In this document: piece after piece, positions 13,019 to 32,877 of the stretch
Layout of the letters: every line of letters begins with the position of its first letter
Position numbering within the stretch: position 1 is the first letter of the stretch
Source of the DNA: Oscillospiraceae bacterium
Lineage (GTDB): Bacteria > Bacillota > Clostridia > Oscillospirales > Acutalibacteraceae
NCBI GenBank assembly: GCA_031283835.1
Contig: JAITBA010000081.1
Coordinates: forward strand, 1-33,385
DNA: 33,385 nucleotides
Reading direction: 5' to 3'
Position numbers and translations under genes: made by a program
The notes under the pieces: generated by a model
What the model was told of the DNA's origin: nothing
The model's input: only the letters and a program-made list of their open reading frames with translations
The model's database searches: none

Positions 13019-13031
13019 GGTGCCGGCGGCG

Positions 13032-13722: not shown

Positions 13723-13853
13723 CGGCACACACCTCCAAATTATACTATGCGCCAAACGCGGCAAAAGCCCCCCATTGGCACAAAGGTCTCGTGTGGCAGT
13801 TCCACATCATTTGCATTGTGTTTGCGGCCTTTGCCTGTGCCGCGTCAAAACCG

Positions 13854-16232: not shown

Positions 16233-16270
16233 GAGTTTGCCTTTCGTTTGTCACTTGGGTAGTGGAAAAA

Positions 16271-16376
16271 TTTTAAACTTTAAACTTTTAAATTTTATAG
16301 CTGATGCAGTTGAAGAGTGCCTTTAAATTTTATAGCCGATGCAGTGGAAGCGCACCTTTCAGTTGAAGCGCGTGCG
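16271..16376. repeat. AT-rich tandem direct repeats in the clpE upstream region
   Basis: The heptad AAACTTT occurs twice in tandem. Two units of about 36 bp follow (TTTTAAATTTTATAGCtGATGCAGTtGAAGaGtGCC and TTTAAATTTTATAGCcGATGCAGTgGAAGcGcaCC), then a third partial unit CAGTTGAAGCGCG. On the clpE-coding (minus) strand each unit carries TATAAAAT. Confidence 0.5.
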
Positions 16377-16415
16377 AGGCTTTTTGCGGAGGATTTTCGC
16401 CTTTCCGCGTCGTGC

Positions 16416-17054
16416 CTACGCTTGCGCGTCCTTCTCTTTTCCAAATAGCTTCCGGTACGTATCCGGGAAGTAGCTGAAAAAGGCCACAAAGGTGAGCACC
16501 AGGTTGAGGACGACCAAAATTTGCACGGCGAGGGCGGGCAAAGACCACCACTTTGCCAGCACGCCCACTTCGGGCCCGGCAAGAAACAGCAGAACCATCA
16601 CGCTATAGAACACGGCCGTGGCGGCTTTGCCCCAAAATTCGGCGGCGGCGGGCCGTTTTTTTAGCAGCAGCATAAGCCCCGCAAAGGCCAACATAATCAC
16701 CTCTTTGGCAATAAACAGCAAAAACACCCAGGCAAAGGCGTGCATCCAGGGGTTTGACGCCGCGTCGGCGCCGCGAAACTTTAGGAACATCAGAACGGCC
16801 AAGGTGACCTGTGTGAGCTTGTCGGCTGTTGGATCGAGGATTTTGCCCAGGTCGCTCACCTGGTGGGTGCGGCGGGCGATTGTGCCGTCCAATTTATCCG
16901 AAAGCCCCGAAAGCGCCACCAGCACCAGCGCCAGCACCATGTGCCCCGGCGTCATATAGGCCCAGACAAACAACGGGATGATGAGAATACGCACGACAGA
17001 AATCACATTGGGGATGGTGAACACCCGGTTCCCGTTTTTGCTTTGCTCTGCCAT
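16416..17054 (-). CDS. pgsA: CDP-diacylglycerol--glycerol-3-phosphate 3-phosphatidyltransferase (CDP-alcohol phosphatidyltransferase family)
   Basis: The CDP-OH phosphatidyltransferase motif DKLDGTIARRTHQVSDLGKILDPTADKL (D-G-x2-A-R...G-x3-D-x3-D) is present, with multiple TM helices. RBS AAGGAG upstream. 212 aa. Confidence 0.85.
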   Translation of the reverse strand: MAEQSKNGNRVFTIPNVISVVRILIIPLFVWAYMTPGHMVLALVLVALSGLSDKLDGTIARRTHQVSDLGKILDPTADKLTQVTLAVLMFLKFRGADAASNPWMHAFAWVFLLFIAKEVIMLAFAGLMLLLKKRPAAAEFWGKAATAVFYSVMVLLFLAGPEVGVLAKWWSLPALAVQILVVLNLVLTFVAFFSYFPDTYRKLFGKEKDAQA

Positions 17055-17099
17055 AGAAACATCTCCTTTGCAACTTTTATACTGTGTTTATAAGTCAAA

Positions 17100-17789
17100 T
17101 CAAATTTCGAACGCCAAATGGGTTGCAACGCGGGAGCCTTCGACGGCCAACCGCATGGTGTCGCCGCCCAAACGCAGTGCCGCCGCCGCGCGCAGCAGCA
17201 GGGCCAGCACCACCAGCATTAGCAGCCCTTTCACAATCCCCAGCCCCGCGCCCAATAATTTATCGGCCTGTTTGAGCACCGGCAAGCGCTTGATTTTCTC
17301 GATTTTGCGGCAAATTGCACGGGTGACAAACAGCAAAGCCGCAAACAGCACAAACCGCAGTGCCAGGCGGAACACCGTCACCGCAATGGGTGCTACAATC
17401 GTCTGCTCCAGCAGCGCGGCCGCGTTTTGCGCGGTGAACTGCTGCGCCGTCAACTGCTCTGTTAGCCCGGCGACCGAAAACCGTGCCACCGCCGCCAGGT
17501 TCACCAGCGCTTCGGGCAGCGCCGCGAACATTTTTTGCGCGGCCTGTGCCGCGTCGCCAACGGGCAGCGTGCCAATGTTCCGCGCAATCATGTCGCGCGC
17601 CGCGTTTTGCGCAAAGATTTCGTAGAGCGGCCGGGCCAGCAGGTCGCCCAGCGTGCTTGCCAGCGCAATGCTCACAATCCACGCGCCCAACTGCAGCGCA
17701 CAGGCAAAAAAGCCCCGTTTTGCCGCGGCAATCACCACCGCCGCAAACGCCGCCAGCAATATCCCGTCCAAAACCCAGCCTGCCATCAT
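17100..17789 (-). CDS. cvpA: CvpA-family membrane protein (colicin V production protein-like)
   Basis: Begins MMAGWVLDGILLAAFAAVVIAAAKRGFFACALQLGAWIVSIALA, matching the CvpA N-terminal pattern, with four predicted TM helices. RBS GACGGAGGG lies 6 nt before the ATG at 17789. The track ORF extends further to 17822. Confidence 0.65.
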   Translation of the reverse strand: MMAGWVLDGILLAAFAAVVIAAAKRGFFACALQLGAWIVSIALASTLGDLLARPLYEIFAQNAARDMIARNIGTLPVGDAAQAAQKMFAALPEALVNLAAVARFSVAGLTEQLTAQQFTAQNAAALLEQTIVAPIAVTVFRLALRFVLFAALLFVTRAICRKIEKIKRLPVLKQADKLLGAGLGIVKGLLMLVVLALLLRAAAALRLGGDTMRLAVEGSRVATHLAFEI

Positions 17790-18121
17790 GGCGCGCCCTC
17801 CGTCTTTTGTGTACGAAAACATCTCCTATAATATAGTATACCACGTTTTTTCTCGAAAAGCAAGCCCTTGCTGTCGAATTCCCGCGCTGCCCTTTTTGTC
17901 CAGCCCCGCCATCGCGTCCTTGCCGTGCTTGTCGGCTTTGTCTATCTCAATTTTAGCGGAAAATCCGTTGACGTTGGGCACGGAGAGCAGCCCGATGGCG
18001 GTGCTGTCGTCTGCCCTGCTTTTTTATACTGTTTTGCGAATAGAAACAACACTCCCCCCATCCCTGAACGCCTATACAAAAATTGCATGGGCGTATTTTT
18101 TTGAGAAAGGAATTGAAAACA

Positions 18122-18706
18122 ATGACAAAATTTGCCTATGTACGCATCTCAACGGCAGAACAGAACGAACTGAGACAGGTTATCGCCATGGAGGACCTCA
18201 AAATCCCAAAAGAAAACATCTACATGGATAAGTTGTCGGGCAAAAACACCGCGCGTCCGGGTTTGCAAAAACTTTTAGCCACCGTAAAGCAGGGCGACGT
18301 CATCTATGTTGAATCCTTCAGCCGCTTTGCCCGCAATACAAGGGATTTATTAGATCTTGTGGAACAACTCTCCGAAATGGGCGTGGGATTTGTGAGCCTG
18401 AAAGAAAAAATCGACACAGGCACACCCACGGGCAAGTTTATGCTGACCGTGTTTGCGGGCATCGCCGAACTCGAGCGGGCTTTCATTTTGCAGCGTTCAA
18501 GGGAGGGCATTGAAGCGGCAAGACGCGCGGGCAAACACCTCGGCAGACCAGTAAAAAACGCCCCCGATGACTTTGACACGCTGGTCAAAGACTGGGAGCG
18601 CAAGGTGATTCCACTGTCAAAAGTCCTCGAACAGTGCGGCAGCATCAGCGAGAGCACCTTCTACCGAAGACGCCGGGAACACCGCATTATCAAAGGAAAA
18701 AAATAA
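18122..18706 (+). CDS. Small serine recombinase (resolvase/invertase family: catalytic domain + C-terminal HTH)
   Basis: Begins MTKFAYVRISTAEQNELRQ with the catalytic Ser in the YVRIST motif. Has the resolvase-type core (GDVIYVESFSRFARNTRDLLDLVEQL, GVGFVSL) and a C-terminal HTH. About 195 aa, a size typical of Hin/Gin/Fim-type invertases. Its stop lies 8 bp from the left inverted repeat. Confidence 0.88.
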   Translation: MTKFAYVRISTAEQNELRQVIAMEDLKIPKENIYMDKLSGKNTARPGLQKLLATVKQGDVIYVESFSRFARNTRDLLDLVEQLSEMGVGFVSLKEKIDTGTPTGKFMLTVFAGIAELERAFILQRSREGIEAARRAGKHLGRPVKNAPDDFDTLVKDWERKVIPLSKVLEQCGSISESTFYRRRREHRIIKGKK

Positions 18707-18713
18707 AGAAAAC

Positions 18714-18740
18714 TGTCAAAAGGCATACCTTTTGAGAGCG
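18714..18740. repeat. Left inverted repeat of the putative invertible segment (27 bp)
   Basis: Exact reverse complement of 18869-18895. Confidence 0.8.
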
Positions 18741-18794
18741 GTCGGGGTTGAAGAAAATTATTGAAAAATTCATAGATTGTCTTCAATTTTGCTG

Positions 18795-18823
18795 TTGCAT
18801 TTTTCGATAAAATGTGTTAAAAT
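18795..18823 (+). promoter_or_regulatory. Sigma-A type promoter inside the invertible segment, currently oriented toward the downstream island operon
   Basis: TTGCAT at 18795-18800, 17-nt spacer, TAAAAT at 18818-18823. The first downstream gene starts at 18949. Confidence 0.55.
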
Positions 18824-18868
18824 AGACAAGTTATTAGGGTTTTGGTTCGAAAACGCCCGAAATTTGCT

Positions 18869-18895
18869 CGCTCTCAAAAGGTATGCCTTTTGACA
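18869..18895. repeat. Right inverted repeat of the putative invertible segment (27 bp)
   Basis: Exact reverse complement of 18714-18740. Confidence 0.8.
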
Positions 18896-18948
18896 ATTTG
18901 CAGTAGACAGGTACAATCCAAATAAATGGGCTAACGGGGTGAATTTGT

Positions 18949-20121
18949 ATGGCGATAATCAACAGGATCAAATATGATGGAAATGCCGATGGTTCTTCGT
19001 GGCTGGTGCATAAGTATCCCTCAGAGAGCTTTGTTCTTGGTTCTCAATTGATTGTCAACCAAGGGCAAGAGGCGTTGTTTCTCAAAGGCGGCGCGGCTCT
19101 CGACCTGTTTTCTGCGGGTACGCACACGCTAGCAACAGGCAATCTTCCCCTGCTAAACAAATTGGTCAACCTTCCCTTTGGCGGCAAAACCCCTTTTGCC
19201 GCCGAGGTTTACTATGTCAACAAAACAGCACGTTTGGATTTGGGCTGGGGAACAAGCAATCCCATAGACTTTGAAGACCCGAAATATCATATTTTCTTAA
19301 ATGTAAGGATCAACGGTCAGTTTGGTATCACCATCAACGATACACGGCTCTTTATCTCGCGTATCATCGGCGCGGTTCCAAACGGCTCTGTTTCGAACTA
19401 CCTTGTTATCTTAAAATATTTTAACGGCGTTATTAACACGAAAGTCAAGTCAATCGTAGCAAAATTCATGCTGGAAAAGAATATCTCGTTTCTTGAAATA
19501 TCAGCGCATCTTGATGATTTATCAGGCGTGTGCCAGTCGGCTATTAGTGAAGAATTTGAGCGGTTTGGCGTTGAGATAGTAAACTTCTTTGTGGAAACCA
19601 TTAAACCGCGCGAGGAAGATCTCGAGGCGATGAAAAAGAAACGCGAGGAAGTTTCCGCAATGAAGCTCGAATTGGGTGAGCTTGGGCGTGACTTCTACGC
19701 ACAAAGACGCTCGTTTGATGTAATGGAAGAAATGGCGGGCACCCCTGGATCCGGCGAATTGGCGAATGCGGGAATCGGTCTTGGAATAGGGCTTGGCGCG
19801 GCGGGTCAAATGGGCGGTGCGTTTGCCGGAATAGCGCAAAACATCAATCTCAACCCGCAACCTCCAGCTTCGGGTGGGGCGCTTAAATGCACAAAATGCG
19901 GCGCAGGTAATCCTCCGGGTCAAAAATTCTGTGGTACATGCGGTGAAAAGATTGAGCTTGGAATTAAATGCGCAGACTGCGGTGCTGTCGTTCCGCCGGG
20001 GCAAAAATTTTGCGGAGAGTGCGGAAAACCGATAGCTAATATTAAATGTCCGGCTTGCGGCGTCGAAAATGCGCCCACTCAAAAATTCTGCGGCGGATGC
20101 GGCAATAAATTGGGAGGTTAA
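18949..20121 (+). CDS. SPFH/band-7 (stomatin/prohibitin-like) domain protein with three C-terminal zinc-ribbon modules and a Gly-rich linker
   Basis: The N-terminal ~260 aa look SPFH-like (COG4260-type architecture). A Gly-rich low-complexity linker (GIGLGIGLGAAGQMGGAFAG) follows. Three CxxCG...QKFCGxCG zinc-ribbon repeats are at the C-terminus. The gene is AT-rich relative to the backbone. Confidence 0.75.
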   Translation: MAIINRIKYDGNADGSSWLVHKYPSESFVLGSQLIVNQGQEALFLKGGAALDLFSAGTHTLATGNLPLLNKLVNLPFGGKTPFAAEVYYVNKTARLDLGWGTSNPIDFEDPKYHIFLNVRINGQFGITINDTRLFISRIIGAVPNGSVSNYLVILKYFNGVINTKVKSIVAKFMLEKNISFLEISAHLDDLSGVCQSAISEEFERFGVEIVNFFVETIKPREEDLEAMKKKREEVSAMKLELGELGRDFYAQRRSFDVMEEMAGTPGSGELANAGIGLGIGLGAAGQMGGAFAGIAQNINLNPQPPASGGALKCTKCGAGNPPGQKFCGTCGEKIELGIKCADCGAVVPPGQKFCGECGKPIANIKCPACGVENAPTQKFCGGCGNKLGG

Positions 20122-20124
20122 GAA

Positions 20125-20730
20125 GTGGCAACATTAAAGGTTTCTGTTTTAGAATGTCCGCAATGCGGCGCTCCCGTCAAACCGGGAAGCAAAACCTGTG
20201 ATAGATGTTACTCTGAGTACATCGTCACGTCCGTCAGTAGCTTGAAAAAGTTTGACAGCTCCGGCATCAAGAAATATCTTGACGGCTACAAAAAGAATGT
20301 GGGGCTTGGCTGCGAAAGCGCCGAACTCTACACAGCAATGGGCATATGCCATCTAACGCGAAAGGTTTACCCTCACGCAATTAATTATTTTGAAAAGGCA
20401 ATTGCCTTGCTGCCAGAGGACGGCGACACGTATTATTATGCGGCGGTCGCTTTGCTGGAGGGGAAAAAGGCGTTTCTGACGAACAGGCCGGTTATTGATA
20501 AAATCGAAACATATCTGGCGAACGCACTGGGATTGGATGATAAGCCTGAATACTATGCTCTCTATGCGTACATAAAGTACGATTACTTTTTCAGAAAATC
20601 ATTCAACACATCGCCAACATACCGTGAGCTTCTTGTCGAGGCAATCAACCACGGGTTCAACCGCTTTGAATCCGATGCCTTATACGAAACGCTTTCGGTT
20701 GCTTGTCCAGGCCCGCTTGTGGTCCGCTAA
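20125..20730 (+). CDS. Hypothetical protein with an N-terminal Zn-ribbon (CPQCG...CDRC) and a helical, TPR-like C-terminal region
   Basis: GTG start 4 nt after the upstream stop, with RBS GGGAGG 7 nt upstream. Has a CxxC-x13-CxxC ribbon and a helical repeat region rich in Tyr/Ala/Leu. Confidence 0.55.
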   Translation: MATLKVSVLECPQCGAPVKPGSKTCDRCYSEYIVTSVSSLKKFDSSGIKKYLDGYKKNVGLGCESAELYTAMGICHLTRKVYPHAINYFEKAIALLPEDGDTYYYAAVALLEGKKAFLTNRPVIDKIETYLANALGLDDKPEYYALYAYIKYDYFFRKSFNTSPTYRELLVEAINHGFNRFESDALYETLSVACPGPLVVR

Positions 20731-21000
20731 CATTATGTTTTCCCCATCAAAAAACCCGTGCATGTTTCGTGTTCCAATGTTGGGTTTTGGGGTTACACAT
20801 CGGAGCACAACGATGTTTTGAGGGAGGAGCGTTGAATGTCTATGGAAAATATTTGGCGTGGCAGCGGATAAATTTTTCCATGAATGGGTTTCGGCATCCT
20901 ATTGTTAAAATGCCGCAAAAGGTTCGTACAAATGCCGCTCGGTAATGAACCTTAAAATCTCTTGAGCGGCAAATCAAAAATTTTTGGGAGGAATTTTTTT

Positions 21001-21579
21001 ATGGCACAGACATCAACCACGGAACAACAACAGCGGTTATCGCAAATAAACTCACTTAAAACGGTAGCGAATGCAGAGCAGAAAATTGTAATTAATTATT
21101 TCACACAGTCTTGCTTCGGACCGAAGGATGAGAAATTCGACCAGGTTGTGAGCTCCTTGCGTTCGCGCCTGAATACTCGCCAAATGGCACTTAACAAAAT
21201 TGGCTTGGATGAAGATCAGTTAAAAGAAATTCCAGATATCTGCTTTGAAGGTTTCCAAACTGACACATGGAATAACGGAAAAATTGAAGGTTTTAGTAAA
21301 GCGGGCGCAGATACGCGTTGGCGTTCAGGCAAGTACGCTATAACGCACTTGTTTTTCTCACCTACGCAAGTTTATATGTATAAATACGAATTTTCTCTTT
21401 ATAGCAACGACAGGAAAGAGCGTACAGAAGAGTATTTTTATAGAGACATCACAAACTTCTCTACCTCCGACGAAACCGTTAATGCATATAACCCAAACTG
21501 CATAGGCGGTGTTAAGGTGGTTCCAGTTAGTACGCAGAGGTTTGAGTTGATTGTTCCGGGCGACCGTAATGAATATTGA
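21001..21579 (+). CDS. Hypothetical protein; paralog of the gene at 22192 (unknown family)
   Basis: RBS GGGAGG 9 nt upstream of the ATG at 21001. It shares the N-proximal segment QKIVINYFTQSCFG (QKKVIKYFNSTGLLG in the paralog) and a C-proximal block THLFFSPTQVYMYKYEF...EYFYRDITN with the 22192 gene. Confidence 0.55.
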   Translation: MAQTSTTEQQQRLSQINSLKTVANAEQKIVINYFTQSCFGPKDEKFDQVVSSLRSRLNTRQMALNKIGLDEDQLKEIPDICFEGFQTDTWNNGKIEGFSKAGADTRWRSGKYAITHLFFSPTQVYMYKYEFSLYSNDRKERTEEYFYRDITNFSTSDETVNAYNPNCIGGVKVVPVSTQRFELIVPGDRNEY

Positions 21580-21623
21580 ACAGAGCGTACGGGCGATGAA
21601 GGCAAAACTCCGCGAGAAGAAGA

Positions 21624-22115
21624 ATGCCTAAACGGAACAGGCAGGACAGCACGACCATATGGGATATTCTTGACAATCCTGCTGTTTGTGACGAAGAAAG
21701 CAGGGAACTTATCAGACCCGTGATTAAAATTAAAACGGTTATTATTTCTGTATTCGTTTGTTTGGTGATTACGGGTCTGATTTCTTTCGCACTCTCCTGC
21801 ATTGTTTGCGCTGTTTTAAAAAGCAAACAAGTAACGACGGTGGATGTGCATAGTGTTCTATTCATTTGCTTGTTGACCTGTTACATTCTTCTGTTCTTGC
21901 TGAGCCTAAGAAGAATCATGATTTTTTTCGTTATGCTTTATCAAGCTAAGGCAAGTGACCAAACCCGTTTAAGATGTGTTTTTGTCCCCAGTTGCTCTGA
22001 GTATATGATTTTGTCTCTAAAAAAATATGGGGCTATTGTTGGTCTCATCAAGGGGATTGGAAGATTACATCGTTGCAGAAATTCATACGGCATTGGCGGC
22101 GAGGACTATCCATAA
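21624..22115 (+). CDS. Membrane protein with a C-terminal YidD-like domain (membrane protein insertion efficiency factor family) and a two-TM N-terminal extension
   Basis: The C-terminal ~65 aa (MIFFVMLYQAKASDQTRLRCVFVPSCSEYMILSLKKYGAIVGLIKGIGRLHRCRNSYGIGGEDYP) match the YidD signature (FYQ...C-x-F-x-P-[ST]-C-S-x-Y ... RL-x-RC-x-P-x-GG-x-D-P). The N-terminal ~95 aa form two hydrophobic helices. An internal ATG at 21918 would yield a YidD-only 65-aa product, so the start is ambiguous. Confidence 0.55.
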   Translation: MPKRNRQDSTTIWDILDNPAVCDEESRELIRPVIKIKTVIISVFVCLVITGLISFALSCIVCAVLKSKQVTTVDVHSVLFICLLTCYILLFLLSLRRIMIFFVMLYQAKASDQTRLRCVFVPSCSEYMILSLKKYGAIVGLIKGIGRLHRCRNSYGIGGEDYP

Positions 22116-22191
22116 AACGAGGTTTTTCAATGGGTTTAGGCGTTGTCCCAAAATCAATGTCAAAAAGCAATAATTTAATGGAGGTAATATT

Positions 22192-22974
22192 ATGTTTCGT
22201 GCACTAAAAAGCAACGGCAATAAAGACTTTGCAAATAGCATAAGAGTTGGTACCGGCTTCATAGGGATGCGCGGCAGAACAAGCGAGCAAAAGAAAGTCA
22301 TCAAATACTTTAACAGCACAGGGCTTTTGGGCGCGATTTTCGGAATATCCAATGCCACGTTTGATGCGATTTTAGGTAACAAAATAAACGCTTGCAGGCA
22401 ATGGATTAACGCGCGGGCATTAAATGTGCATGGTATGGATGCTGACGAAGTCAAGGAAACTACCCCTATTCTTGTTGAAAACTATGCCTCTGAAAGCCGT
22501 TTTTTCAAAATATTCAATGACCGTACATTCCGCACCTCTGAATATCAGGTGACTTATTTGTTGTTTGGCGAAAAACAGATGTATGTGTATAGTCATACTT
22601 TCGACCTGACCAGCGAAAACACTACCGAACATACGAGAGAATATTTCTATGAGGATATAACCAACGTGGATGTCACTCAAAAGAAAATTGAATTTCCAAA
22701 TCCGCGTCCATTGCGGTATCTTTTGGGCGGAATTGGTTGTATTGTGCTCGGTGCATTGTTGGCACTTATCCCATTTATCGGCGTTCTCTTTGCCGTGTGC
22801 GGTCTTGTCGCAGGAATTATCGTAATGTTTTTCTTAGGTTATTCCCGGAGTGTAGTAGATAATTTGGTTTTGAGGCTGACCGTATCCGGCGATGAGTTTA
22901 TCTGTGCTATGAAGCCCGAAAACATGGCTGCGATACAGGGAATGAAAGCGAAAATCAGGGAAAAGAAAAAATAA
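22192..22974 (+). CDS. Hypothetical membrane-anchored protein; paralog of the 21001 gene with an added C-terminal TM helix
   Basis: RBS GGAGGT 8 nt upstream. It shares the EYFYEDITN block with the 21001 gene and has a hydrophobic segment LRYLLGGIGCIVLGALLALIPFIGVLFAVCGLVAGIIVMFFLGY. Confidence 0.6.
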   Translation: MFRALKSNGNKDFANSIRVGTGFIGMRGRTSEQKKVIKYFNSTGLLGAIFGISNATFDAILGNKINACRQWINARALNVHGMDADEVKETTPILVENYASESRFFKIFNDRTFRTSEYQVTYLLFGEKQMYVYSHTFDLTSENTTEHTREYFYEDITNVDVTQKKIEFPNPRPLRYLLGGIGCIVLGALLALIPFIGVLFAVCGLVAGIIVMFFLGYSRSVVDNLVLRLTVSGDEFICAMKPENMAAIQGMKAKIREKKK

Positions 22975-23027
22975 CAATTCTCGTTGTCGCGTGAGGCTAA
23001 AATGCAGTTAGGGGGGAGCGTTTCATC

Positions 23028-26000
23028 ATGCCAGACATCAAAAATGGTGCGGCAACAGATTTCTTGGCCACGTTTTTCATCGAAAATCGTGCCATTACAA
23101 AAAAGTTGAGCGACGTAATAAAAAACAGAGAAAACAGCTTGTTCCGCTCCGCATTAGGTTTGTCGAACGATTTTGTGTTGCCGTTTCTCAGCGAAGAAAG
23201 TGCTAACGACACTCCCTCCATCACCTATTCCCTCCGCAGCACGTTAAATTCCGATTTTACCGCTTACATAAATGACGAGGCTCAAAACCACCATGTCATC
23301 GCAAGCGGCGACTATGTTGTTTTCAAAAACCAAAACGGCGATACTTATATTCGCGTTCTATTCCTTGGCACAAACGAGATAAAACTTGGATACAAAAAAT
23401 ATGCGCTGAATAAAGGCAAAAACCTTTTTATCGGTCGGCAACAAGACAATGACATTTCTTTCGATTTTAGCGACCGTATTTCCCGCGAAAAGCATATTGC
23501 TATCAGAATGGATGAAAACGGCGATGTTTTCGCAGAAGATTTGAAGCGCAGTATTGGCGTTTATGTGAACGGAAAACAGACCCATTCGCAAAAGCTTTCT
23601 TTATTTGATGAAGTCACCGTAATGGGACTTTCGCTTGTGTACCTCGGAGGTTGTGTTGCCGTTAGAGATTTCAAAATTTTAAGTAACTGTGTTCCTGTAA
23701 CTGAATTTTCAGCAAAAGCTCCCATTGAAAAAACAGAGGTCAAATACTTTGTCCGCAACCCGCGAATCCTCAAATCGCTTGATACCGACCCGGTAGAAAT
23801 AGACGCGCCGCCAAATCCTCCTTCTCAGGATAAAACCCCTGCCATTTTGGTTTTAGGGCCGAGCGTAACCATGTCTTTGGTTATGATGGCGAGCTTGGGC
23901 GTATCGCTTACAAACGCATTAAGCGGCGGTGATATGAGTACAATCATTACCAGCGGCGTGATGGCTGTCGGTATGCTGATTGGTTCTTTGCTGTGGCCTG
24001 CGCTGCTGCGCAGCTATCAAAAACGCGCTGTTATCGCCGAAGAAAAACACAGACGGAGCAGCTACACCGGGTACATTTCTGAAATTGACAAAAAGTTATA
24101 CGCTAAATCGGATAGAACCATTCGCGTGTTAAACGAAACCTTTTCCCCCACACCGGAACAGGAATTGAAATTGCTTGATAGCGAAAGCGGACGACTGCGC
24201 TTGTGGGAACGTTCATTTAGCGATGAAGATTTTCTAAGAGTCCGCTTGGGCTTGGGTCAAGGTGCTTTTGGCGTAAATATCGCGACTCCCAAAGTGGGGT
24301 TTCAATTGCATGAGGACGAATTACGCAAGTTACCTGTTCGGATTTCCGAAAAATATTCTGTATTATCAAATGTGCCCGTTACGCTTGATTTGAAAAGCAA
24401 TCGGGCAGTCGGTCTTATTGGCTCTGCCGCAAATATTCACAACATCATCAACGAAATCATATTGAACTTGATTTCCCTCCATTCATATGATGAAGTCAAG
24501 TTAGCGATTGTTTGTTCCGAAAAGGAATCATCCCAATTTATCCATCTGCGAAACATCCCGCATATTTGGAGCGATGATAAAAAAATCAGATACTTCGCCA
24601 CAAACAATGATGAAGTCCACTATGTTTTCAACGCGATTGACGACATAGTAAAAGAACGCGAAAAAACACAAGAAAGAAAAACAACAACTCCCGGCAAGCC
24701 TCATTTTGTTTTGGTCATAACCGATGGTGCTTTGATTGAAGGCGAACCGTTGTTACGATATATTGAAAACCCTGATAACGCCGTAGGCATTACCTCTCTA
24801 TTTTCGTACGGAGATATTTCCAAGCTGCCGAAAGCCTGTAAGGCAATTATACAAAGCGACAATAGCAGAAGCGGTTATTATGCTAAAAATGAGAATAATA
24901 ATCGGTTTATCGAATTTGTGCCGGACACCTTGCAAGGTTCGGACATTAGCCGATTTGCAAGACGATTAGCGGCTCTTCCCGTTAAAGTCGATGCCCATGC
25001 TTTAGGTGTACCCGAAAGAATTACTTTCCTTCAAACTTTCAAAGCGGGCAACGTGGATGAGCTTGCAATAGAGAAGCATTGGAATAACAACAATTCAGCC
25101 AAATCGCTTTCTGCTCAAATTGGCGTTATGGCAGGCGGCAACCCTTTTTCGCTCGACATTCACGAAGCGTATCACGGATGTCATGGTCTGGTCGCAGGGA
25201 CGACTGGTTCCGGCAAGAGTGAATTTTTGCAAGCATTTGTTCTATCTTTGGCAATCAACTACAGCCCAAAAGAAATCGCCTTTGTGTTGGTGGATTTTAA
25301 GGGTGGCGATATGGCTCGTCCTTTTATGGAAAAGAAAAATGAAAACGGAGATGTTGTCAAACACGCTTTGCCGCATTTGGCGGCTATCATATCCAATCTT
25401 TCAGGGAATTTGCTATATAGGGCGTTGGTTTCTTTTAACGCTGAAATTAAATATAGACAAACGCTGTTCAATAAAGCCGCCGCCGCACTTGGCGTAGATA
25501 AATTGGACATCAATTCCTATCACAAATATTACAAAGCTGGCAAGCTGTCCGTGCCTTTGCCCCATTTGGTTATTATCATAGACGAGTTTGCCCAGCTCAA
25601 AACACAACAGCCCGATTTTTTGGCAGAGCTTATCAATGTTGCGCAAGTCGGTCGTAGCCTTGGTATTCACCTCATATTGGCTACCCAAAAGCCAAGCGGC
25701 GTTGTCGATCCACAGATTTGGAGCAACTCCCGTTTCAAAGTTTGCCTAAAAGTTGCGGACAAACAGGACAGCATTGACATGATAAACAAACCCGATTCCG
25801 CGCTTATTAAGAATCCGGGCAGATGCTATGTGCAAGTAGGCTATGATGAAGTATACGAATGTGTTCAATCGGGATATAGCGGAGCGGATTATGTGCCGAC
25901 AAAAACTTATTTGCCCGATGACGAGATAACGGTTCAAATGACCGACAGCACTGCAACACCCATTCATAGCGCAAAAATAGATTTTTCCGCAAACAAAACC

Positions 26001-27698
26001 GACAAGACCCAGCTTGAAGCGGTCGTTGCAAGCCTCATCACTCTCGGTACGGACAAAAACCTGTTTGTTAAGCCGTTGTGGAAAGATATGCTGCCGGAAC
26101 GCATTGCCCTTGACAGCTTGCAAACCGAAGCGAAAACCATACTCAAAGCAACCGTCGCGCTGACTGATTTCGTGCGCGTTCAAGAACAAAGACCGTTAGC
26201 GATTGATTTTGCCCAAACAGGACATTTGGGCATTTATGGGGCAAGCGGGACCGGAAAAACGACTTTCTTACAAACGCTGATCTATTCGCTCGTATGCGAC
26301 TATTCCTATACACCTGATGAGCTTACCATTTACGCTATGGATTTTGGCGGTCGCAGTCTTGGATATTTGAACGCCTTGCCTCACGTTGGTGATGTTGTGT
26401 TTGAGGACAACGAAGGCAAAATCGCCGCCCTTGCTGATACGCTGCAATCGATAATTGACGAAAGAAAACGCATTTTTGCGGCGAGCAATTGCGGAACATT
26501 TGTAGATTACCACGCAACAGGGAAACAGCGCATCCCGGCGGTTTTGGTGTTGATTGACAATTTCGCGCCTTTCCATGAAAAACACATGGATTTATCAGAG
26601 CGGTTTTTTGGGATCATCAGTGCAGGTAAAACGTACGGTGTTTATTTTGTGATTACCGGGAATACTCGCAATGCGATTTATTATAAGGTCGCCGAACACA
26701 TCTCCACATATTTCATGCTAAAAATGAACGACCCCGGCAACTATTTTGATGTTCTCAACCTTCGTCCTCCCATTACGCCGGAAGATATAAAGGGGCGCGG
26801 GATAACCGTTATTGACAAGGAGGTCGTTGAGTTTCAAGTTGCGTTGGCGCTTGACGGCGAATCAGAATCAGAGCGCGTCACTTTGATGTATGATACATAT
26901 GTCCAAATTGCTGAGGGCTGGACCGGAACAGTACCTCTCGCTCTTGCCGATGATTTTGTCGGCAGCGATGAGGATTATTCGGAAACATCAACGATTAGCT
27001 ATACATATACGATAAAAACTACGCCACCCGATATTGTCAGCGATGACGGCAACACTCTTGTACTTGGCAAATCCCCTACCGGGGCATCGCTTTACGGCAT
27101 AAACTTGGAAGACCATTTTAAATGCGTTGTTTGCGCTAACGAAAATGAATCGTTGAACAATTATTACAAAAAGCTAACTGCGTGGATATTGAAACACGAA
27201 AATCGAAAGGTGTTCTTCGTTGACGATGCAAGCGGGGTATTTTCTGACATAACTTCCGTCGGTGGTGTCCGTTATATTCGAGGTTCCGATGAGCTGGATG
27301 CATTGCTTGCATTATTAAAGCCGGAGTTAAATTCCCGGTTAGATGATGATTCCGCTGGCTTCGGTGAGATATTTATAATCCTTTCAGATTTTGGCGCATT
27401 CTTTGATATGTTATCCGATGAGCAAGCCGATGTGATGCGGAAAATCACTCGTTACATAGACTTGCCAAAATATAAAATGTGTTTTATCTGTGGCTTCAAC
27501 GTGCAGAATGATTTAGGCGAAAAGAGCAATGACCGATTGTTCACAGACTTAATTGTAAATGCAGTTAATTATGTCGTGTTCCCAAAGAGTTACGATGAAT
27601 CCCGCAGTAAAATTGAGAATTTCCCGCTCATTCACGATGTAAAAAACGCAGAAATATATTTTTGCCAAGAAGATAAAAACACAAAGATAAGGTGGTGA
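23028..27698 (+). CDS. essC: EssC/YukB-like type VII secretion FtsK/SpoIIIE-family ATPase (N-terminal FHA region, TM helices, three P-loop ATPase modules)
   Basis: 1556 aa. FHA-like region (LFIGRQQDNDISFDFSDRISREKHIAIRMDENGDVFAEDLKRSIGVYVNG). Two TM helices (ILVLGPSVTMSLVMMASLGV, IITSGVMAVGMLIGSLLWPALL). Walker A motifs GLVAGTTGSGKSEFLQ and GIYGASGTGKTTFLQ, plus a degenerate third module. Walker B-like IIIDEFAQL. Confidence 0.85.
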   Translation: MPDIKNGAATDFLATFFIENRAITKKLSDVIKNRENSLFRSALGLSNDFVLPFLSEESANDTPSITYSLRSTLNSDFTAYINDEAQNHHVIASGDYVVFKNQNGDTYIRVLFLGTNEIKLGYKKYALNKGKNLFIGRQQDNDISFDFSDRISREKHIAIRMDENGDVFAEDLKRSIGVYVNGKQTHSQKLSLFDEVTVMGLSLVYLGGCVAVRDFKILSNCVPVTEFSAKAPIEKTEVKYFVRNPRILKSLDTDPVEIDAPPNPPSQDKTPAILVLGPSVTMSLVMMASLGVSLTNALSGGDMSTIITSGVMAVGMLIGSLLWPALLRSYQKRAVIAEEKHRRSSYTGYISEIDKKLYAKSDRTIRVLNETFSPTPEQELKLLDSESGRLRLWERSFSDEDFLRVRLGLGQGAFGVNIATPKVGFQLHEDELRKLPVRISEKYSVLSNVPVTLDLKSNRAVGLIGSAANIHNIINEIILNLISLHSYDEVKLAIVCSEKESSQFIHLRNIPHIWSDDKKIRYFATNNDEVHYVFNAIDDIVKEREKTQERKTTTPGKPHFVLVITDGALIEGEPLLRYIENPDNAVGITSLFSYGDISKLPKACKAIIQSDNSRSGYYAKNENNNRFIEFVPDTLQGSDISRFARRLAALPVKVDAHALGVPERITFLQTFKAGNVDELAIEKHWNNNNSAKSLSAQIGVMAGGNPFSLDIHEAYHGCHGLVAGTTGSGKSEFLQAFVLSLAINYSPKEIAFVLVDFKGGDMARPFMEKKNENGDVVKHALPHLAAIISNLSGNLLYRALVSFNAEIKYRQTLFNKAAAALGVDKLDINSYHKYYKAGKLSVPLPHLVIIIDEFAQLKTQQPDFLAELINVAQVGRSLGIHLILATQKPSGVVDPQIWSNSRFKVCLKVADKQDSIDMINKPDSALIKNPGRCYVQVGYDEVYECVQSGYSGADYVPTKTYLPDDEITVQMTDSTATPIHSAKIDFSANKTDKTQLEAVVASLITLGTDKNLFVKPLWKDMLPERIALDSLQTEAKTILKATVALTDFVRVQEQRPLAIDFAQTGHLGIYGASGTGKTTFLQTLIYSLVCDYSYTPDELTIYAMDFGGRSLGYLNALPHVGDVVFEDNEGKIAALADTLQSIIDERKRIFAASNCGTFVDYHATGKQRIPAVLVLIDNFAPFHEKHMDLSERFFGIISAGKTYGVYFVITGNTRNAIYYKVAEHISTYFMLKMNDPGNYFDVLNLRPPITPEDIKGRGITVIDKEVVEFQVALALDGESESERVTLMYDTYVQIAEGWTGTVPLALADDFVGSDEDYSETSTISYTYTIKTTPPDIVSDDGNTLVLGKSPTGASLYGINLEDHFKCVVCANENESLNNYYKKLTAWILKHENRKVFFVDDASGVFSDITSVGGVRYIRGSDELDALLALLKPELNSRLDDDSAGFGEIFIILSDFGAFFDMLSDEQADVMRKITRYIDLPKYKMCFICGFNVQNDLGEKSNDRLFTDLIVNAVNYVVFPKSYDESRSKIENFPLIHDVKNAEIYFCQEDKNTKIRW

Positions 27699-27703
27699 AA
27701 CCA

Positions 27704-27952
27704 ATGGGGAAAATACCTGTTACAGTAAACATTCCGGCAATCAGCCAAAACCATGATTTTCTAATCCCTGCGACTATGGCGGTTCGCGATGTTGTCCAAC
27801 TGATGGTAAATATCTTGGTTTCAGAGTATGGTGTTTCCAACGTCCTTTCCAATATATCCTTGCTTGATGAAAGCGATGGAAAGGCGTTGAGAACAGATTG
27901 TAGTTTCCAGCAACTTGGCGTTACAGCCGGTGCGAAGCTAATACTAATCTAA
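27704..27952 (+). CDS. esaB: YukD/EsaB-like ubiquitin-fold T7SS accessory protein
   Basis: 82 aa, with its ATG 6 nt after the EssC stop. The N-terminal beta-strand pattern IPVTVNIP...FLIPATMAV and the C-terminal GVTAGAKLILI resemble B. subtilis YukD (…CGITNGDRLEIM). Confidence 0.65.
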   Translation: MGKIPVTVNIPAISQNHDFLIPATMAVRDVVQLMVNILVSEYGVSNVLSNISLLDESDGKALRTDCSFQQLGVTAGAKLILI

Positions 27953-27973
27953 GGAGGAAGGAGGCATGTTGAA

Positions 27974-28279
27974 ATGGGATTCAGGATAAATCACTCAAAG
28001 GTCATTTCACAGGCAAATTCCATTGCCGATGATGCTGACAGACTTGGTTCGCAGGTCAATCAGCTAACGGCAATGGAGCAGGATGTTCGCATGGCTTGGA
28101 AAGGGCAAGCCGCGGACACGTTTCTTAAAAGGCTTGCCACGCTGAAAGGTGAGATAAGCCGAACAAAGCAACAAATGGCTAATCTGGCTTCAACCATAAG
28201 GTATTGTGCCGATAGGATTCAGCGCGAAGACGAAGAAGCTGAAAGACGCGCCGCCGCCCTGAAAACCTCTGGCAATTAG
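27974..28279 (+). CDS. esxA: WXG100-family (EsxA/ESAT-6-like) small secreted protein
   Basis: 101 aa and predicted helical hairpin. The central W-x-G motif is MAWKGQAADTF. RBS AAGGAGGAAGGAGG upstream. Its stop TAG overlaps the first bases of MITE copy B. Confidence 0.75.
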   Translation: MGFRINHSKVISQANSIADDADRLGSQVNQLTAMEQDVRMAWKGQAADTFLKRLATLKGEISRTKQQMANLASTIRYCADRIQREDEEAERRAAALKTSGN

Positions 28280-28440
28280 GGCGTGTTGACACTATCCGAA
28301 ATGTCCAGATTTTGAGCGGATTTTTTGTCGGGCAAGGCAATTTTTTTGCAGTCATACTTTCGTATTACAAAAAAAATAACGCAGAACGGCGGAAAATCCG
28401 CCAGAAGATGGGCGTTGAGCGTTAGTGTCAACACGCCCTA
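28277..28440. mobile_element. MITE-like miniature inverted-repeat element, copy B (same orientation as copy A)
   Basis: About 98% identical to 12855-13018 (3 substitutions). Has the same 18-bp terminal inverted repeats and is flanked by TA on both sides. Confidence 0.6.
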
Positions 28441-28461
28441 ATAGCCCTCCTCAAAAACGCC

Positions 28462-28497
28462 GCCCCCTGCTAATTGATAGCAGGGGCTTTCATTTTC
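28462..28497 (+). terminator. Rho-independent terminator closing the island operon
   Basis: GCCCCCTGC-taattgata-GCAGGGGGC followed by TTTCATTTT. Confidence 0.65.
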
Positions 28498-28556
28498 CCA
28501 AAAAAAACGTGTGATTGATGGCAGGTTTTTTTCATTCGTGCCCCGCTAATTTGTGA

Positions 28557-28585
28557 TTGACATTTCCATTCAAAATCGGTATAAT
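28557..28585 (+). promoter_or_regulatory. Perfect-consensus sigma-A promoter: TTGACA, 17-nt spacer, TATAAT, for folB-folK
   Basis: TTGACA at 28557-28562, 17-nt spacer, TATAAT at 28580-28585, about 47 nt upstream of the folB ATG. Confidence 0.6.
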
Positions 28586-28632
28586 AATAAGATAGAACCC
28601 ATTGCCGTGCGCAAGGAGAAAAGAGAACACAA

Positions 28633-29004
28633 ATGGACAAAATTCGCATCGAAGGGCTGGAAGTGTTCGCCCGCCATGGGGTCAACCCCGAGGAGCAGCG
28701 CGACGGGCAGGTGTTTTTGCTCGATCTCGTGCTGCAATTTGACGCGGCAAATGCCCGGCAAAGCGACGAGCTGCACAGCACGGTGAACTACGCCCAGGTG
28801 ATCAAAACGGCGGCGGCGGCGTTTGACGCACAAACCTGCCGGCTCATCGAACGGGCGGCGCAAGTGACGGCGCAAGCGGTGATGGAGGCTTTTCCGGCGG
28901 TGATGCGGCTAACGCTGCGGGTGCACAAGCCCGACGCGCCCATTGCGCGCCCGGTGGCAGATATTGTGTTTGAGACAACTTGTGAAAGGGATGGCGCGCA
29001 ATGA
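28633..29004 (+). CDS. folB: Dihydroneopterin aldolase
   Basis: 123 aa. Has the FolB-fold motifs (IEGLEVFARHGVNPEEQRDGQVF and the catalytic K in VHKPDAP) and sits directly upstream of folK, overlapping it by ATGA. Confidence 0.85.
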   Translation: MDKIRIEGLEVFARHGVNPEEQRDGQVFLLDLVLQFDAANARQSDELHSTVNYAQVIKTAAAAFDAQTCRLIERAAQVTAQAVMEAFPAVMRLTLRVHKPDAPIARPVADIVFETTCERDGAQ

Positions 29005-29504
29005 GTGAAGCGGTGGTTGGCCTGGGCAGCAACCTGGGCAAAAAAAACGAAAATTTGCTGCAGGCAGTGCAAGCGCTCAGCCGCTTGCCGGGCAGCACTA
29101 TCAAAAGAATTTCCTCCATTTTTGTCTCTCCGCCCGAGGGCGCGCCCACAGAGGACGCGCAAGAAGAATACCACAACATGGCGGTACTACTCGAAACTAC
29201 GATGTCGCCCATGGCGTTGCTGGGGGCGTGTCTTGGCGTCGAAGCCGCCATGGGCCGCGTGCGCACGCACAAAAACGCCGCCCGGCCCATCGACTTAGAT
29301 CTGCTGCTCTACGAAGGGATAAAAAGCGAGAGCTTCGAGCTTTCGCTCCCGCACCCGCGCCTGCTGCAGCGCGCCTTCACGCTGCTCCCGCTCAAGGAGC
29401 TATACCCTTCTGGCCGCGCGCCGGGCATCTTCTTCGAACCCCACCTGCGGGAACTGGATCTTACCGGCATCCGCCGGCTAGAACGGCGCATCGAGATGAA
29501 TTGA
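29001..29504 (+). CDS. folK: 2-amino-4-hydroxy-6-hydroxymethyldihydropteridine pyrophosphokinase (HPPK)
   Basis: HPPK motifs VGLGSNLG, ARPIDLDLLLY, LPHPRL. 167 aa. Confidence 0.9.
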   Translation: MSEAVVGLGSNLGKKNENLLQAVQALSRLPGSTIKRISSIFVSPPEGAPTEDAQEEYHNMAVLLETTMSPMALLGACLGVEAAMGRVRTHKNAARPIDLDLLLYEGIKSESFELSLPHPRLLQRAFTLLPLKELYPSGRAPGIFFEPHLRELDLTGIRRLERRIEMN

Positions 29505-29556
29505 CGCGCGCGGTTCTTCAAAAAAAACATATTTGACCAACGAAAGGGCGGCGCGC

Positions 29557-29976
29557 ATGGCCGATTTATTCATCGAAATCAACCGCTTTGCGCTGCCTGC
29601 GCTGGGTGTGCTGGTGGTTGTGCTGTGCACGGTGTGCCTGCTGCGCCGCGGCAAAACCAAACCACCCGAAGTTTATTTGCTCAATGCGGTGAACCACGAC
29701 AAACACCCGCTGCCTCGGTTCGAAAACTCCATCGGCCGCCGCCACAACTGCGATGTGGTGCTCAACTACCCCTCCGTTTCACGCCTGCACGCGGTCATTG
29801 CGCGCCGCCGCGAAGGCTGGGTGCTCATGGATACCGGTTCCCAGTATGGCACAAAGCTCGACGGCCTGCCCGTGAAGGATCGTGCGCCGCTTTCTCACGG
29901 CCAATGCATCACCTTTGGCGGCAGCGAGTTCATTTTTTGCGACCCCGAAGAAGAACGCCTAACCCTAAAATATTAG
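29557..29976 (+). CDS. FHA-domain protein with an N-terminal membrane anchor
   Basis: TM segment FALPALGVLVVVLCTVCLL followed by an FHA domain (IGRRHNCDVVLNYPSVSRLHAVIARRREGWVLMDTGSQYGTKLDG). The first ATG is at 29557; the track start is a TTG. Confidence 0.7.
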   Translation: MADLFIEINRFALPALGVLVVVLCTVCLLRRGKTKPPEVYLLNAVNHDKHPLPRFENSIGRRHNCDVVLNYPSVSRLHAVIARRREGWVLMDTGSQYGTKLDGLPVKDRAPLSHGQCITFGGSEFIFCDPEEERLTLKY

Positions 29977-30034
29977 CACGCTGCCGGCTTTGCGCCCCGC
30001 AGCGGCGGCAAGAATCCCGCTAGGAGAAAAATAT

Positions 30035-30826
30035 ATGAGCATTAAAGAAGCCAAGCGCATTGTGGTGAAGGTGGGCACTTCCACCCTAACACACCAAACC
30101 GGCAAAACCAATCTGCGCATTATCGGCCGTTTGGCCGCCGTGCTCAGCGATCTGCGCAACGCCGGGCGCGAGGTTGTGCTGGTTAGCTCCGGCGCAGTGG
30201 CCGTGGGGCAAAACAACCTGCGCCTGCCCGCCCGCCCAAAAGATATGCCCGGCAGGCAGGCCGCCGCCGCCGTGGGGCAGTGCGAGCTGATGTTCCTATA
30301 CGACAAAGTCTTCGGCGAATATGGCAACACGGTGGGGCAGCTGCTGCTCACCCGGGGCGACCTCGAAAACGAGCCGCGCCGCACCAACCTGCTCAACACC
30401 TTCAGCAAGCTGCTGGAACTGGGCGCAATCCCCATTGTCAACGAAAACGACAGTGTTTCGACCGAAGAATTGGAAGGCATGAACTTTGGCGACAACGATA
30501 ACCTTTCGGCCATGGTGGCGCGGCTCATCGGCGCCGATTTGCTCGTGTTTCTCACCGATACAGACGGCCTTTATACGGCCAACCCCGCCGAGGATCCCTC
30601 CGCCGCGCGCATCTCTGTGGTGCCCCGCGTCACGCCCGAAGTCCTCGCCCTGGGCGGTGGCAGCGGCAGCAGCCGCGGCACCGGCGGCATGCACACCAAG
30701 CTGGTGGCCGCGCAGCTTGCCACTGCCGCCGGCATCAATGCGGTCATTCTCCCCGGCGACCGCCCCGAAGATTTATATTTGCTCATGGATGGCCGTCAGG
30801 CGGGCACATGGTTCAAAAAACAATAG
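30035..30826 (+). CDS. proB: Glutamate 5-kinase (short form without PUA domain)
   Basis: RBS AGGAG upstream. Amino-acid kinase family motifs VVKVGTS, VLVSSGAV, TDTDGLYTANP. Confidence 0.9.
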   Translation: MSIKEAKRIVVKVGTSTLTHQTGKTNLRIIGRLAAVLSDLRNAGREVVLVSSGAVAVGQNNLRLPARPKDMPGRQAAAAVGQCELMFLYDKVFGEYGNTVGQLLLTRGDLENEPRRTNLLNTFSKLLELGAIPIVNENDSVSTEELEGMNFGDNDNLSAMVARLIGADLLVFLTDTDGLYTANPAEDPSAARISVVPRVTPEVLALGGGSGSSRGTGGMHTKLVAAQLATAAGINAVILPGDRPEDLYLLMDGRQAGTWFKKQ

Positions 30827-30871
30827 CCTGCGTTTTTTTGACGAACACGTTTGCACAAAAAGGGAGATTTT

Positions 30872-32110: not shown

Positions 32111-32147
32111 AAATTTGCAACACGCGCAAAAATCAGGAGGTAACGAC

Positions 32148-32855: not shown

Positions 32856-32877
32856 TTCCACAAAAAGGAGAGCCAGC

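Follow-up and report, generated by a model that had tools for sequence, protein, structure and literature searches.

A type VII secretion locus encoded with SPFH, zinc-ribbon and YidD-like proteins and without recognisable EssB, EssA or EsaA on an Oscillospiraceae contig

Type VII secretion systems (T7SSs) comprise several subtypes, which have the components A, B and C (TsxA/TsxB/TsxC) in common and differ in variable, lineage-specific accessory proteins (PMC11217815, Garrett, Higginson & Palmer 2024). In Bacillus subtilis, the components YukB and YukC are bridged by YukD (PMC12637312), and in Staphylococcus aureus the flotillin FloA interacts with EssB and supports the assembly of the T7SS (PMC5718613, Mielich-Suess et al. 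2017). Another protein of the SPFH class, the soluble YdjI of B. subtilis, carries a C-terminal zinc finger and depends on the membrane proteins YdjG and YdjH (PMC8581546, Scholz et al. 2021). Here we describe a locus in which genes of both kinds stand together. It lies on contig JAITBA010000081.1, a 33,385-bp contig of an Oscillospiraceae metagenome-assembled genome (MAG), which is analysed over its whole length and is referred to as the window. The locus is an AT-rich island whose eight open reading frames (ORFs), g1 to g8, form a single string on the + strand, and the coordinates given in a first-pass annotation of the same DNA hold (Table 1). In our reading, the island has been acquired horizontally and is probably an eroded copy, in part, of a T7SS variant that many gut Clostridia carry, in which the secretion core, with its WXG100 protein as substrate or co-factor, is genetically coupled to an SPFH protein with three zinc-ribbons and to a zinc-ribbon/TPR protein, and in a subset of loci also to the PAR and YidD-like proteins introduced below, instead of to EssB, EssA and EsaA.

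Judged by sequence, the window carries a bona fide T7 core, encoded by g6, g8 and, probably, g7. The first-pass annotation had proposed a trio of EssC, a YukD-like protein and a WXG100 protein, which profile searches confirm for g6 and g8, with g7 as a probable YukD-like member. The TIGR03928 alignment spans residues 239-1555 of the 1556-aa g6 product, which has a single FHA domain, transmembrane (TM) segments at about residues 272-327 and a strong Pfam FtsK_SpoIIIE match (E 3.6e-49); the source annotation likewise names this gene 'type VII secretion protein EssC'. In a full-length alignment with 20 homologs, the Walker A/B motifs of the ATPase domains D1 and D2 are invariant across all 21 sequences. 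Of the FHA domain plus three FtsK/SpoIIIE domains that had been proposed, all stands except that the P-loop of the third domain, D3, reads as degenerate. The YukD score of g7 lies below the gathering threshold (GA); the model is matched by 14 of 19 g7 orthologs (best E 5e-8), and the family profile finds weak matches to ubiquitin-like domains in the PDB (E 0.011). The g8 product scores slightly under the cut-off of TIGR03930 (40.1 against 44.85) and is collinear to its end with its orthologs, at 55-68% identity. Two parts of a generic T7SS core are clearly present, since g6 is a membrane-bound FtsK/SpoIIIE ATPase of the EssC/EccC type and g8 a small helical WXG100 protein encoded with it. The island resembles T7SSb (the Ess/Yuk systems of S. 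aureus and B. subtilis) in that an EssC with an N-terminal FHA domain above the NCBIfam cut-off is followed by a YukD/EsaB-like and a single WXG100 protein.

Unlike T7SSb, the island is without the EssB/YukC pseudokinase, EssA/YueC and EsaA/YueB, and the partner of YukD in B. subtilis, YukC, is missing in the window. The Pfam and NCBIfam models of EssB/YukC, EssA and EsaA/YueB match none of g1-g8 at E<=0.1, and EssB/YukC is not found in the flanking genes at E<=0.001; EssA/YueC and EsaA/YueB families likewise match no protein of the window. We considered whether the unassigned proteins could be divergent versions of EssB, EssA or EsaA and rejected this: they have no such Pfam or NCBIfam match, g5 is PH-like with a TM hairpin, g2 is a TPR protein and g4 a YidD-domain protein. 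The folds of g2 and g5 exclude both from being divergent EssB, EssA or EsaA, and the earlier statement that none of the three is recognisable is upheld within the window. The same absence extends to related EssC loci, where no EssB/EssA/EsaA match occurs among the accessory proteins scanned and where the YukC, EssA and EsaA families are lacking from precomputed Pfam lists and scans covering up to 10 kb of flank per side.

Instead, the core is preceded by five genes of different character. The g1 protein consists of a PF13421 domain and three CxxC-Nx-CxxC ribbons without any hydrophobic or TM segment, and thereby shows the features of YdjI-like Band_7_1 proteins, namely PF13421, no membrane anchor of its own and a C-terminal Zn-binding motif. 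The g2 protein combines a 4-Cys ribbon with a soluble TPR fold; its annotation by JGI (162 aa) begins at an internal Met, so that the N-terminal Zn-ribbon is missed. Canonical YidD, a membrane protein insertion efficiency factor, is a small protein of about 80 aa encoded in an rnpA-yidD-yidC context. The g4 protein shares with it a PF01809/TIGR00278 domain with the conserved Cys motif, above both cut-offs, and RefSeq calls a Bacteroides relative of this gene 'yidD'; it differs in its length of 163 aa, in an extra two-TM region (hydrophobic segments at residues 39-57 and 77-95) and in its cassette/T7SS setting, the neighbours being PAR and EssC and not rnpA and yidC. The domain readings first given for g1, g2 and g4 are thus retained.

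The remaining two proteins, g3 and g5, match no Pfam family but are paralogous to each other, at 31% identity (E 4e-23). Their family, which we label PAR, forms 695 clusters at 50% identity in a set of 1.84 billion representatives. As had been suggested, one of the two is membrane-anchored, namely g5 with its TM hairpin. The most likely start of g3 is the ATG at 21001, deduced from its ribosome-binding site (RBS) and from the ortholog in locus L050, which corrects the first-pass annotation.

To what extent this arrangement is conserved was assessed in comparison loci, numbered with the prefix L (e.g. L043), which contain related EssC or cassette genes. A metagenome scan with an EssC alignment yielded 78 more loci, in which ORFs were called and clustered, and 38 non-redundant EssC loci were defined as those with at least 3.5 kb of upstream sequence and a distinct EssC N-terminus. 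The closest EssC relatives are 40-69% identical, measure about 1,540 aa and are abundant in gut metagenomes; one cluster member bears the label Clostridium saudiense. A Band_7_1 SPFH gene is present in 30 of the 38 loci, directly 5' of EssC in 22, and the zinc-ribbon/TPR gene or its homolog Y283, a 283-aa protein (hhalign 92%, E 6e-7), in 21; PAR (8/38) and YidD-like genes (5/38) are less frequent. Triple zinc-ribbons occur in 24 of 27 distinct EssC-linked SPFH proteins versus none of 28 stand-alone ones, and g1 itself is 57-61% identical to the gene directly 5' of EssC in L044 and L046 and 79% identical to its counterpart in L050. In L043 to L047, the Band_7_1 gene again lies directly 5' of EssC, with the zinc-ribbon tail present in most and undetected in L043. 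In L050, the genes follow one another exactly as they do in the window, and the proteins are 63-82% identical. The neighbourhood is therefore conserved in relatives, and the proposed wiring of the T7 core to an SPFH protein is supported by frequency, adjacency and a ribbon tail specific to the EssC-linked copies.

The trio of ZnTPR, PAR and YidD-like genes takes three operon positions and is always co-oriented with the operon: it precedes SPFH in L062 and L070, separates SPFH from EssC in the window as in L049 and L050, and follows a kinase gene in L099; behind the kinase of L108 and L128, ZnTPR and PAR are seen but no YidD-like gene. A tyrosine integrase and a helix-turn-helix (HTH) gene often lie just 5' of both the EssC-linked loci and the stand-alone form of the cassette described below, so both forms travel on integrative elements, and L045 also contains a relaxase. 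Sister loci are not uniform. Some lack the usual upstream genes and have in their place a CsgG-like gene, an LPP20-like gene, or a Zn-ribbon/TPR/NPCBM protein with a short SPFH behind it (L051:1719-2705, L092:14907-15851, L110:18714-21097). The accessory sets of this EssC clade are highly variable.

Downstream of EssC, the relatives encode a YukD-like protein, three WXG100 proteins, a 370-470-aa protein (mostly of the type X385), DUF4176, a PP2C phosphatase and a membrane Ser/Thr kinase. X385-type proteins of 370-400 aa (L044:15968-17356; L046:15943-17349) begin with a helical region, end in a hydrophobic part rich in Gly and Ala, and match no Pfam family. Together with the DUF4176 protein that follows, they likely form an effector/chaperone pair, by analogy with Streptococcus suis, where DUF4176 stabilises an LXG toxin according to the title of the respective paper (PMC12482557). 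The C-terminal ~230 aa of the L043 kinase (15887-17833) are homologous to C4, a component of the cassette described below (blastp E 8e-19). That the kinases of T7SS loci generally carry a C4 domain was considered and rejected, since L043 stands alone and the comparison of family profiles is not significant; the tails of the other kinases in the clade are likewise TM-plus-helical, yet without significant similarity to C4.

Among the described subtypes, T7SSc-j are similar in that a conserved core is combined with accessories, and the membrane Ser/Thr kinase and PPM/PP2C of the relatives resemble the D and F components of T7SSc/e/j. They are unlike the present loci in their subtype-specific components: the accessory set of vWA-containing TscE, EspG-like G, Ig-rich I, DUF6382-FHA J, TadZ-AAA+ V and DUF5050 L is absent from the window proteins and was not found in the accessory proteins scanned from related loci, which make up the smaller part of the genes there; kinase and PP2C are all that the relatives share with these subtypes. 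The text of PMC11217815 and those of its supplements that were examined mention neither SPFH, band 7, YidD or zinc ribbons nor TPR or PH-like components. Furthermore, we found no other paper in the open-access literature on SPFH genes linked to a T7SS operon, nor a description of this variant. The claim that the gene content departs from described T7SSb loci is thus confirmed and extends to the T7SSc-j sets. The system is best filed as a new T7SS variant outside T7SSa-j as described, set apart by its gene content.

The SPFH, Zn-TPR, PAR and YidD genes are, however, not T7SS-specific. A search with the g5 family, taking one genome per species, returned 38 loci with a modular cassette that we define by five families, i.e. 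ZnR-TPR, PAR, YidD-like, Band_7_1 and a 4-TM/coiled-coil protein, C4 or C6. These loci are spread over Oscillospiraceae, Lachnospiraceae, Bacteroidales (among them Bacteroides and Prevotella) and a spirochaete MAG. All five families stand side by side in most of them, a few have a partial set, and neither EssC (+/-10 kb) nor YukD or WXG100 is found in the flanking DNA covered. The SPFH proteins of these stand-alone loci end in SHOCT or GYF_2 domains and have no Zn-ribbons. Measured against this definition, the window has four of the five families, with no homolog of C4 or C6 by tblastn, and its SPFH belongs to the EssC-linked Zn-ribbon subfamily. The cassette has apparently been co-opted by the T7SS. 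In Bacteroides finegoldii, where the neighbours are housekeeping genes, RefSeq labels the five genes as hypothetical, yidD, SPFH domain-containing, hypothetical and zinc ribbon domain-containing. In strain JCM 13345 (L040) the cassette looks fragmented, with SPFH and YidD split over several ORFs; in TSDC17.2-1.1 (L130, NZ_OY725907.1:60235-63994) it is intact, on a record called 'plasmid 5' despite its neighbours obgE, adk and hpt.

Ten of the cassette loci encode an ATPase of about 894 aa, DUF87/HerA-like, placed after the YidD-like gene or, in loci without one, 3' of PAR. HExxH proteins usually come next in those loci whose sequence extends far enough. Examples of this variant are L023:11200-16253, L001:12073-15718 and L005, and the proteins behind the ATPase are either a ~780-aa protein that combines highly acidic repeats with an HExxH motif at its C-terminus, or a 211-aa SprT-like HExxH protein together with a conserved 98-aa protein. 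The ATPase was considered as a cut-down EssC, which was rejected because the similarity is at the level of the P-loop only.

Several observations weigh against the reading of the island as a T7SS variant coupled to SPFH. The absence of EssB holds for a 33-kb MAG contig, so that EssB-like genes may lie elsewhere in the genome, and an SPFH gene is not within reach in 8 of the 38 related EssC loci. The cassette occurs without a T7SS in 38 loci, including those of diderm Bacteroidota, and its primary function is therefore not EssC secretion. Contact between SPFH and EssC is something that we infer. Finally, the window copy is without the kinase, the PP2C, the effector pair and two of the WXG100 genes, and given a frameshifting deletion in g3 and the loss of a TM helix in g5, the window system may be non-functional.

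This last point leads to the rival that survives best, namely that the window locus is a decaying T7SS remnant which has lost effectors and regulators and in which secretion has ended, an outcome we hold to be possible, though it is not the one we favour. The absence is real as far as the window goes, since tblastn finds no homolog there of the two extra WXG100 proteins, the putative X385 effector, DUF4176, PP2C, the Ser/Thr kinase or C4, all but the last of which are found downstream in relatives, and g8 is bordered at its stop by a host repeat. Near the end of g3 (21560-21630), 17 nt that L050 has are deleted; the resulting frameshift costs g3 its conserved C-terminal helix (...MKAKLREKKNA) and also destroys the ancestral overlap between the stop of g3 and the start of g4, and g5 is without the ~35 residues that form an N-terminal TM helix in nearly all of 40 aligned homologs. 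The loss in g5 is, however, in-frame, its RBS and ATG (22192) being the same as in the L050 ortholog; the promoter-like site and the RBSs are intact; the EssC, SPFH, Zn-TPR, YidD-like, YukD-like and WXG100 proteins have all kept their full length and their conserved motifs; and effectors could lie elsewhere in the genome. The 'minimal' character that the module was first given is in any case secondary, in view of the richer loci of relatives and of these deletions. With the effector and kinase/phosphatase half lost, export would be limited to g8 or to cargo encoded elsewhere, and the window system may be on its way to inactivation.

If the island is indeed an SPFH-coupled T7SS, its action could be pictured as follows. 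By analogy with YdjG/YdjH and YdjI, the membrane proteins g4 and g5, aided by the TPR adaptor g2, would recruit the SPFH oligomer to the membrane; by analogy with FloA, the SPFH assembly would scaffold or stabilise EssC multimers; and EssC would then export the WXG100 protein and any effectors. The first-pass annotation had suggested that SPFH and YidD components replace the usual membrane scaffold. The SPFH protein has no TM segment and therefore cannot itself do so; the remainder of this proposal we infer. Both precedents are imperfect. The pspA-ydjGHI (samGHI) operon of B. subtilis is similar in that a soluble SPFH protein with a C-terminal zinc-finger motif is encoded beside small membrane proteins, one partner having a Zn-ribbon; it differs in that the genes beside SPFH in the island encode TPR, PH-like and YidD-domain proteins and that no PspA gene lies in the window or in the inspected cassette loci, the PspA family being absent from the Pfam-scanned window proteins and from the partial Pfam listings of related loci. 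FloA is likewise an SPFH-family protein tied to a T7SS, functionally in its case and by genes alone in the island. However, FloA is a general membrane-anchored flotillin encoded elsewhere that acts via EssB, whereas g1 is a soluble Band_7_1 protein inside the operon and EssB is absent.

It is also conceivable, if rather unlikely, that a single mobile island houses two systems independent of each other, the SPFH cassette having its own role (in membrane stress, membrane organisation or otherwise) and the T7SS being unrelated cargo. The cassette is complete and self-sufficient without EssC within +/-10 kb in Bacteroidales, Lachnospiraceae, Oscillospiraceae and a spirochaete MAG, the same integrase-HTH elements carry both kinds of locus, so that co-location could reflect a common cargo site, and YdjI, the best-studied Band_7_1 protein, serves the PspA membrane-stress response (PMC8581546). 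Against such independence, there is a single SPFH gene per T7SS locus, usually directly 5' of EssC (22/38), its tail of three Zn-ribbons is never seen in stand-alone cassettes, and the trio shifts its position yet stays co-oriented with the operon. Moreover, the intergenic gaps in the window are short (3-76 nt), with the exception of 231 nt before the TTG ORF start of g3, or 270 nt if measured to the preferred ATG, and no convincing internal terminator was found between the island genes.

A broader, tentative view, which we put forward with less confidence than the T7SS variant itself, treats the cassette as an unrecognised cross-phylum membrane platform on which translocases of the FtsK/HerA superfamily would dock: EssC in gut Clostridia, and the DUF87 ATPase with HExxH cargo in Lachnospiraceae, Oscillospiraceae and a MAG labelled Fibrobacteria. 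In the former case this would give rise to a T7SS subtype free of EssA, EssB and EsaA, and the whole would constitute a new, often phase-variable family of export or membrane-remodelling machines. If true, such a platform would unite the EssC and HerA-like variants as one machine family.

A canonical T7SSb with its EssB, EssA and EsaA genes elsewhere in the genome is improbable. The visible sequence amounts to 33 kb of a MAG and its EssC exceeds the NCBIfam cut-off of the Firmicutes type; however, the related loci, taken with as much as 10 kb of flank per side, show no YukC, EssA or EsaA family in Pfam lists or scans, and T7SSb genes are normally clustered with essC (PMC11217815; established knowledge). 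Least probable of all is a phase-variable anti-phage or conflict system formed by the cassette with EssC or the HerA-like ATPase and not serving secretion, which would fit the invertase or inverted repeats beside the cassette in three loci, the mobile-element location, the HerA/DUF87 ATPase and HExxH variants and the TIR (TIR_2) and AAA genes 5' of SPFH in L043, and against which EssC-linked loci carry typical T7 cargo genes (WXG100 paralogs, DUF4176) and a known anti-phage system was searched for and rejected, as PADLOC gives no match for g1-g5 at E<=0.01 and generic ATPase similarity only for EssC and the HerA-like ATPase.

Table 1. Positions of the island genes and of the elements at both island edges in the 33,385-bp window.
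Feature	Position	Strand	Evidence or remark
Serine recombinase (invertase-type)	18083..18706	+	Pfam Resolvase 138.7 bits; GC 0.494; left island end
Candidate invertible segment	18710..18899	.	31-nt inverted repeats 18710-18740 / 18869-18899 around 128 nt
Promoter-like site TTGACA-16-TACAAT	18890..18917	+	11/12 consensus match only
g1, soluble SPFH (Band_7_1), three C-terminal Zn-ribbons	18949..20121	+	Band_7_1 131.6 bits (GA 24)
g2, N-terminal 4-Cys Zn-ribbon and TPR domain, soluble	20125..20730	+	TPR protein by fold comparison
g3, soluble PAR paralog	21001..21579	+	PH-like fold inferred from homology to g5
g4, YidD-domain protein, 2-TM N-terminal extension	21624..22115	+	PF01809 58.2 bits (GA 27); TIGR00278 52.7 (cut-off 40)
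g5, membrane-anchored PAR paralog	22192..22974	+	PH-like domain interrupted by TM hairpin
g6, EssC: FHA, 2 TM segments, FtsK/SpoIIIE ATPase domains	23028..27698	+	TIGR03928 975.9 bits (cut-off 778.4)
g7, YukD/EsaB-like ubiquitin-like protein, 82 aa from ATG 27704	27704..27952	+	YukD 20.4-20.6 bits, below GA 27
g8, WXG100, W-K-G motif, full length	27974..28279	+	PF06013 44.5 bits (GA 27.3)
Host repeat of ~166 bp, terminal inverted repeats	28276..28441	.	Abuts g8 stop; right island edge
Terminator-like hairpin then T-run	28464..28486	+	Probable operon end
folB promoter-like site	28557-28585		Follows hairpin; 12/12 match

The island is horizontally acquired. Its GC content (18083-28279) is 0.443, compared with 0.584 to the left (1-17850) and 0.594 to the right (28500-33385), and GC content at third codon positions (GC3) is 0.42-0.54 in island genes versus 0.73-0.76 in four flanking genes, in agreement with the AT-rich, foreign appearance noted before. 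Low GC and housekeeping flanks therefore indicate foreign DNA inserted between cvpA and folB. On the left, the flank encodes a histidine kinase, a GT-D glycosyltransferase, an aminoacyl-tRNA synthetase, a beta-galactosidase, PhoH and YbeY, as well as SpoIIE-like, Clp-type ATPase, CDP-alcohol phosphatidyltransferase and CvpA proteins, and on the right FolB, FolK, an FHA protein, ProB and ProA. The 816-aa SpoIIE-domain gene (10407-12857) lies in a stretch that stands out by an unusually high GC content of up to 0.70 and by an AT skew that swings strongly, to -0.40. When the window was scanned for tRNA genes and Rfam families, neither turned up, and the search for att sites returned a 12-nt word as the sole sequence common to both island edges, which is unconvincing.

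At the left end, the serine recombinase is context and lies outside the secretion module. Each arm of the adjoining 31-nt inverted repeat is itself palindromic (TCAAAAGG-N4-CCTTTTGA). The -35 element of the promoter-like site lies within the right arm and the -10 element outside it; the site would therefore survive inversion and be present in both orientations. An invertase 40% identical to that of the window sits 5' of a stand-alone cassette in L023 (a Roseburia MAG), where invertase-adjacent inverted repeats of 21-22 nt enclose a spacer of 125 nt, as they do one of 113 nt in L004, and the repeat core of L023 (ATCAAAAGGTACAC) resembles that of the window. Both invertase regions (L023:8306-9158 and L004:8290-9116) adjoin cassette loci without EssC. 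Recombinase control may thus be recurrent in the cassette, as far as these sequence likenesses suggest, and the island operon may be under phase-variable control. The tyrosine integrase 5' of related loci was considered as an invertase and rejected, no suitable inverted repeats having been found.

At the right edge, the ~166-bp element, which starts within the last codons of g8 and has terminal inverted repeats of 19-24 nt, looks like a MITE- or REP-like host repeat. A second copy, about 98% identical, is found at 12854-13019 in the high-GC backbone, so that both copies lie at the 3' ends of genes, the SpoIIE-like gene and g8, and none occurs in the first 128 comparison loci. The inverted repeat 3' of g8 was also considered as a second inverton, which was rejected in view of this backbone copy at 12.85 kb.

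How the T7SSb channel assembles and which of its parts are dispensable is still an open question, on which a large clade of T7SSs without EssB, EssA and EsaA, abundant in gut commensals, has a direct bearing. A dedicated SPFH/Zn-ribbon gene beside EssC turns the flotillin-T7SS observation in S. aureus into a genome-encoded, testable hypothesis, and the variant adds a subtype to the T7SSa-j scheme. The stand-alone cassette, in turn, is a gene set conserved across several phyla for which RefSeq offers no more than the labels 'hypothetical', 'SPFH domain' and 'yidD', and its presence in the culturable B. finegoldii offers a tractable entry to a class of SPFH proteins in bacteria that is little understood. 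As integrase-bearing elements in human-gut metagenomes carry these loci, they may affect the competition between strains in the microbiome.

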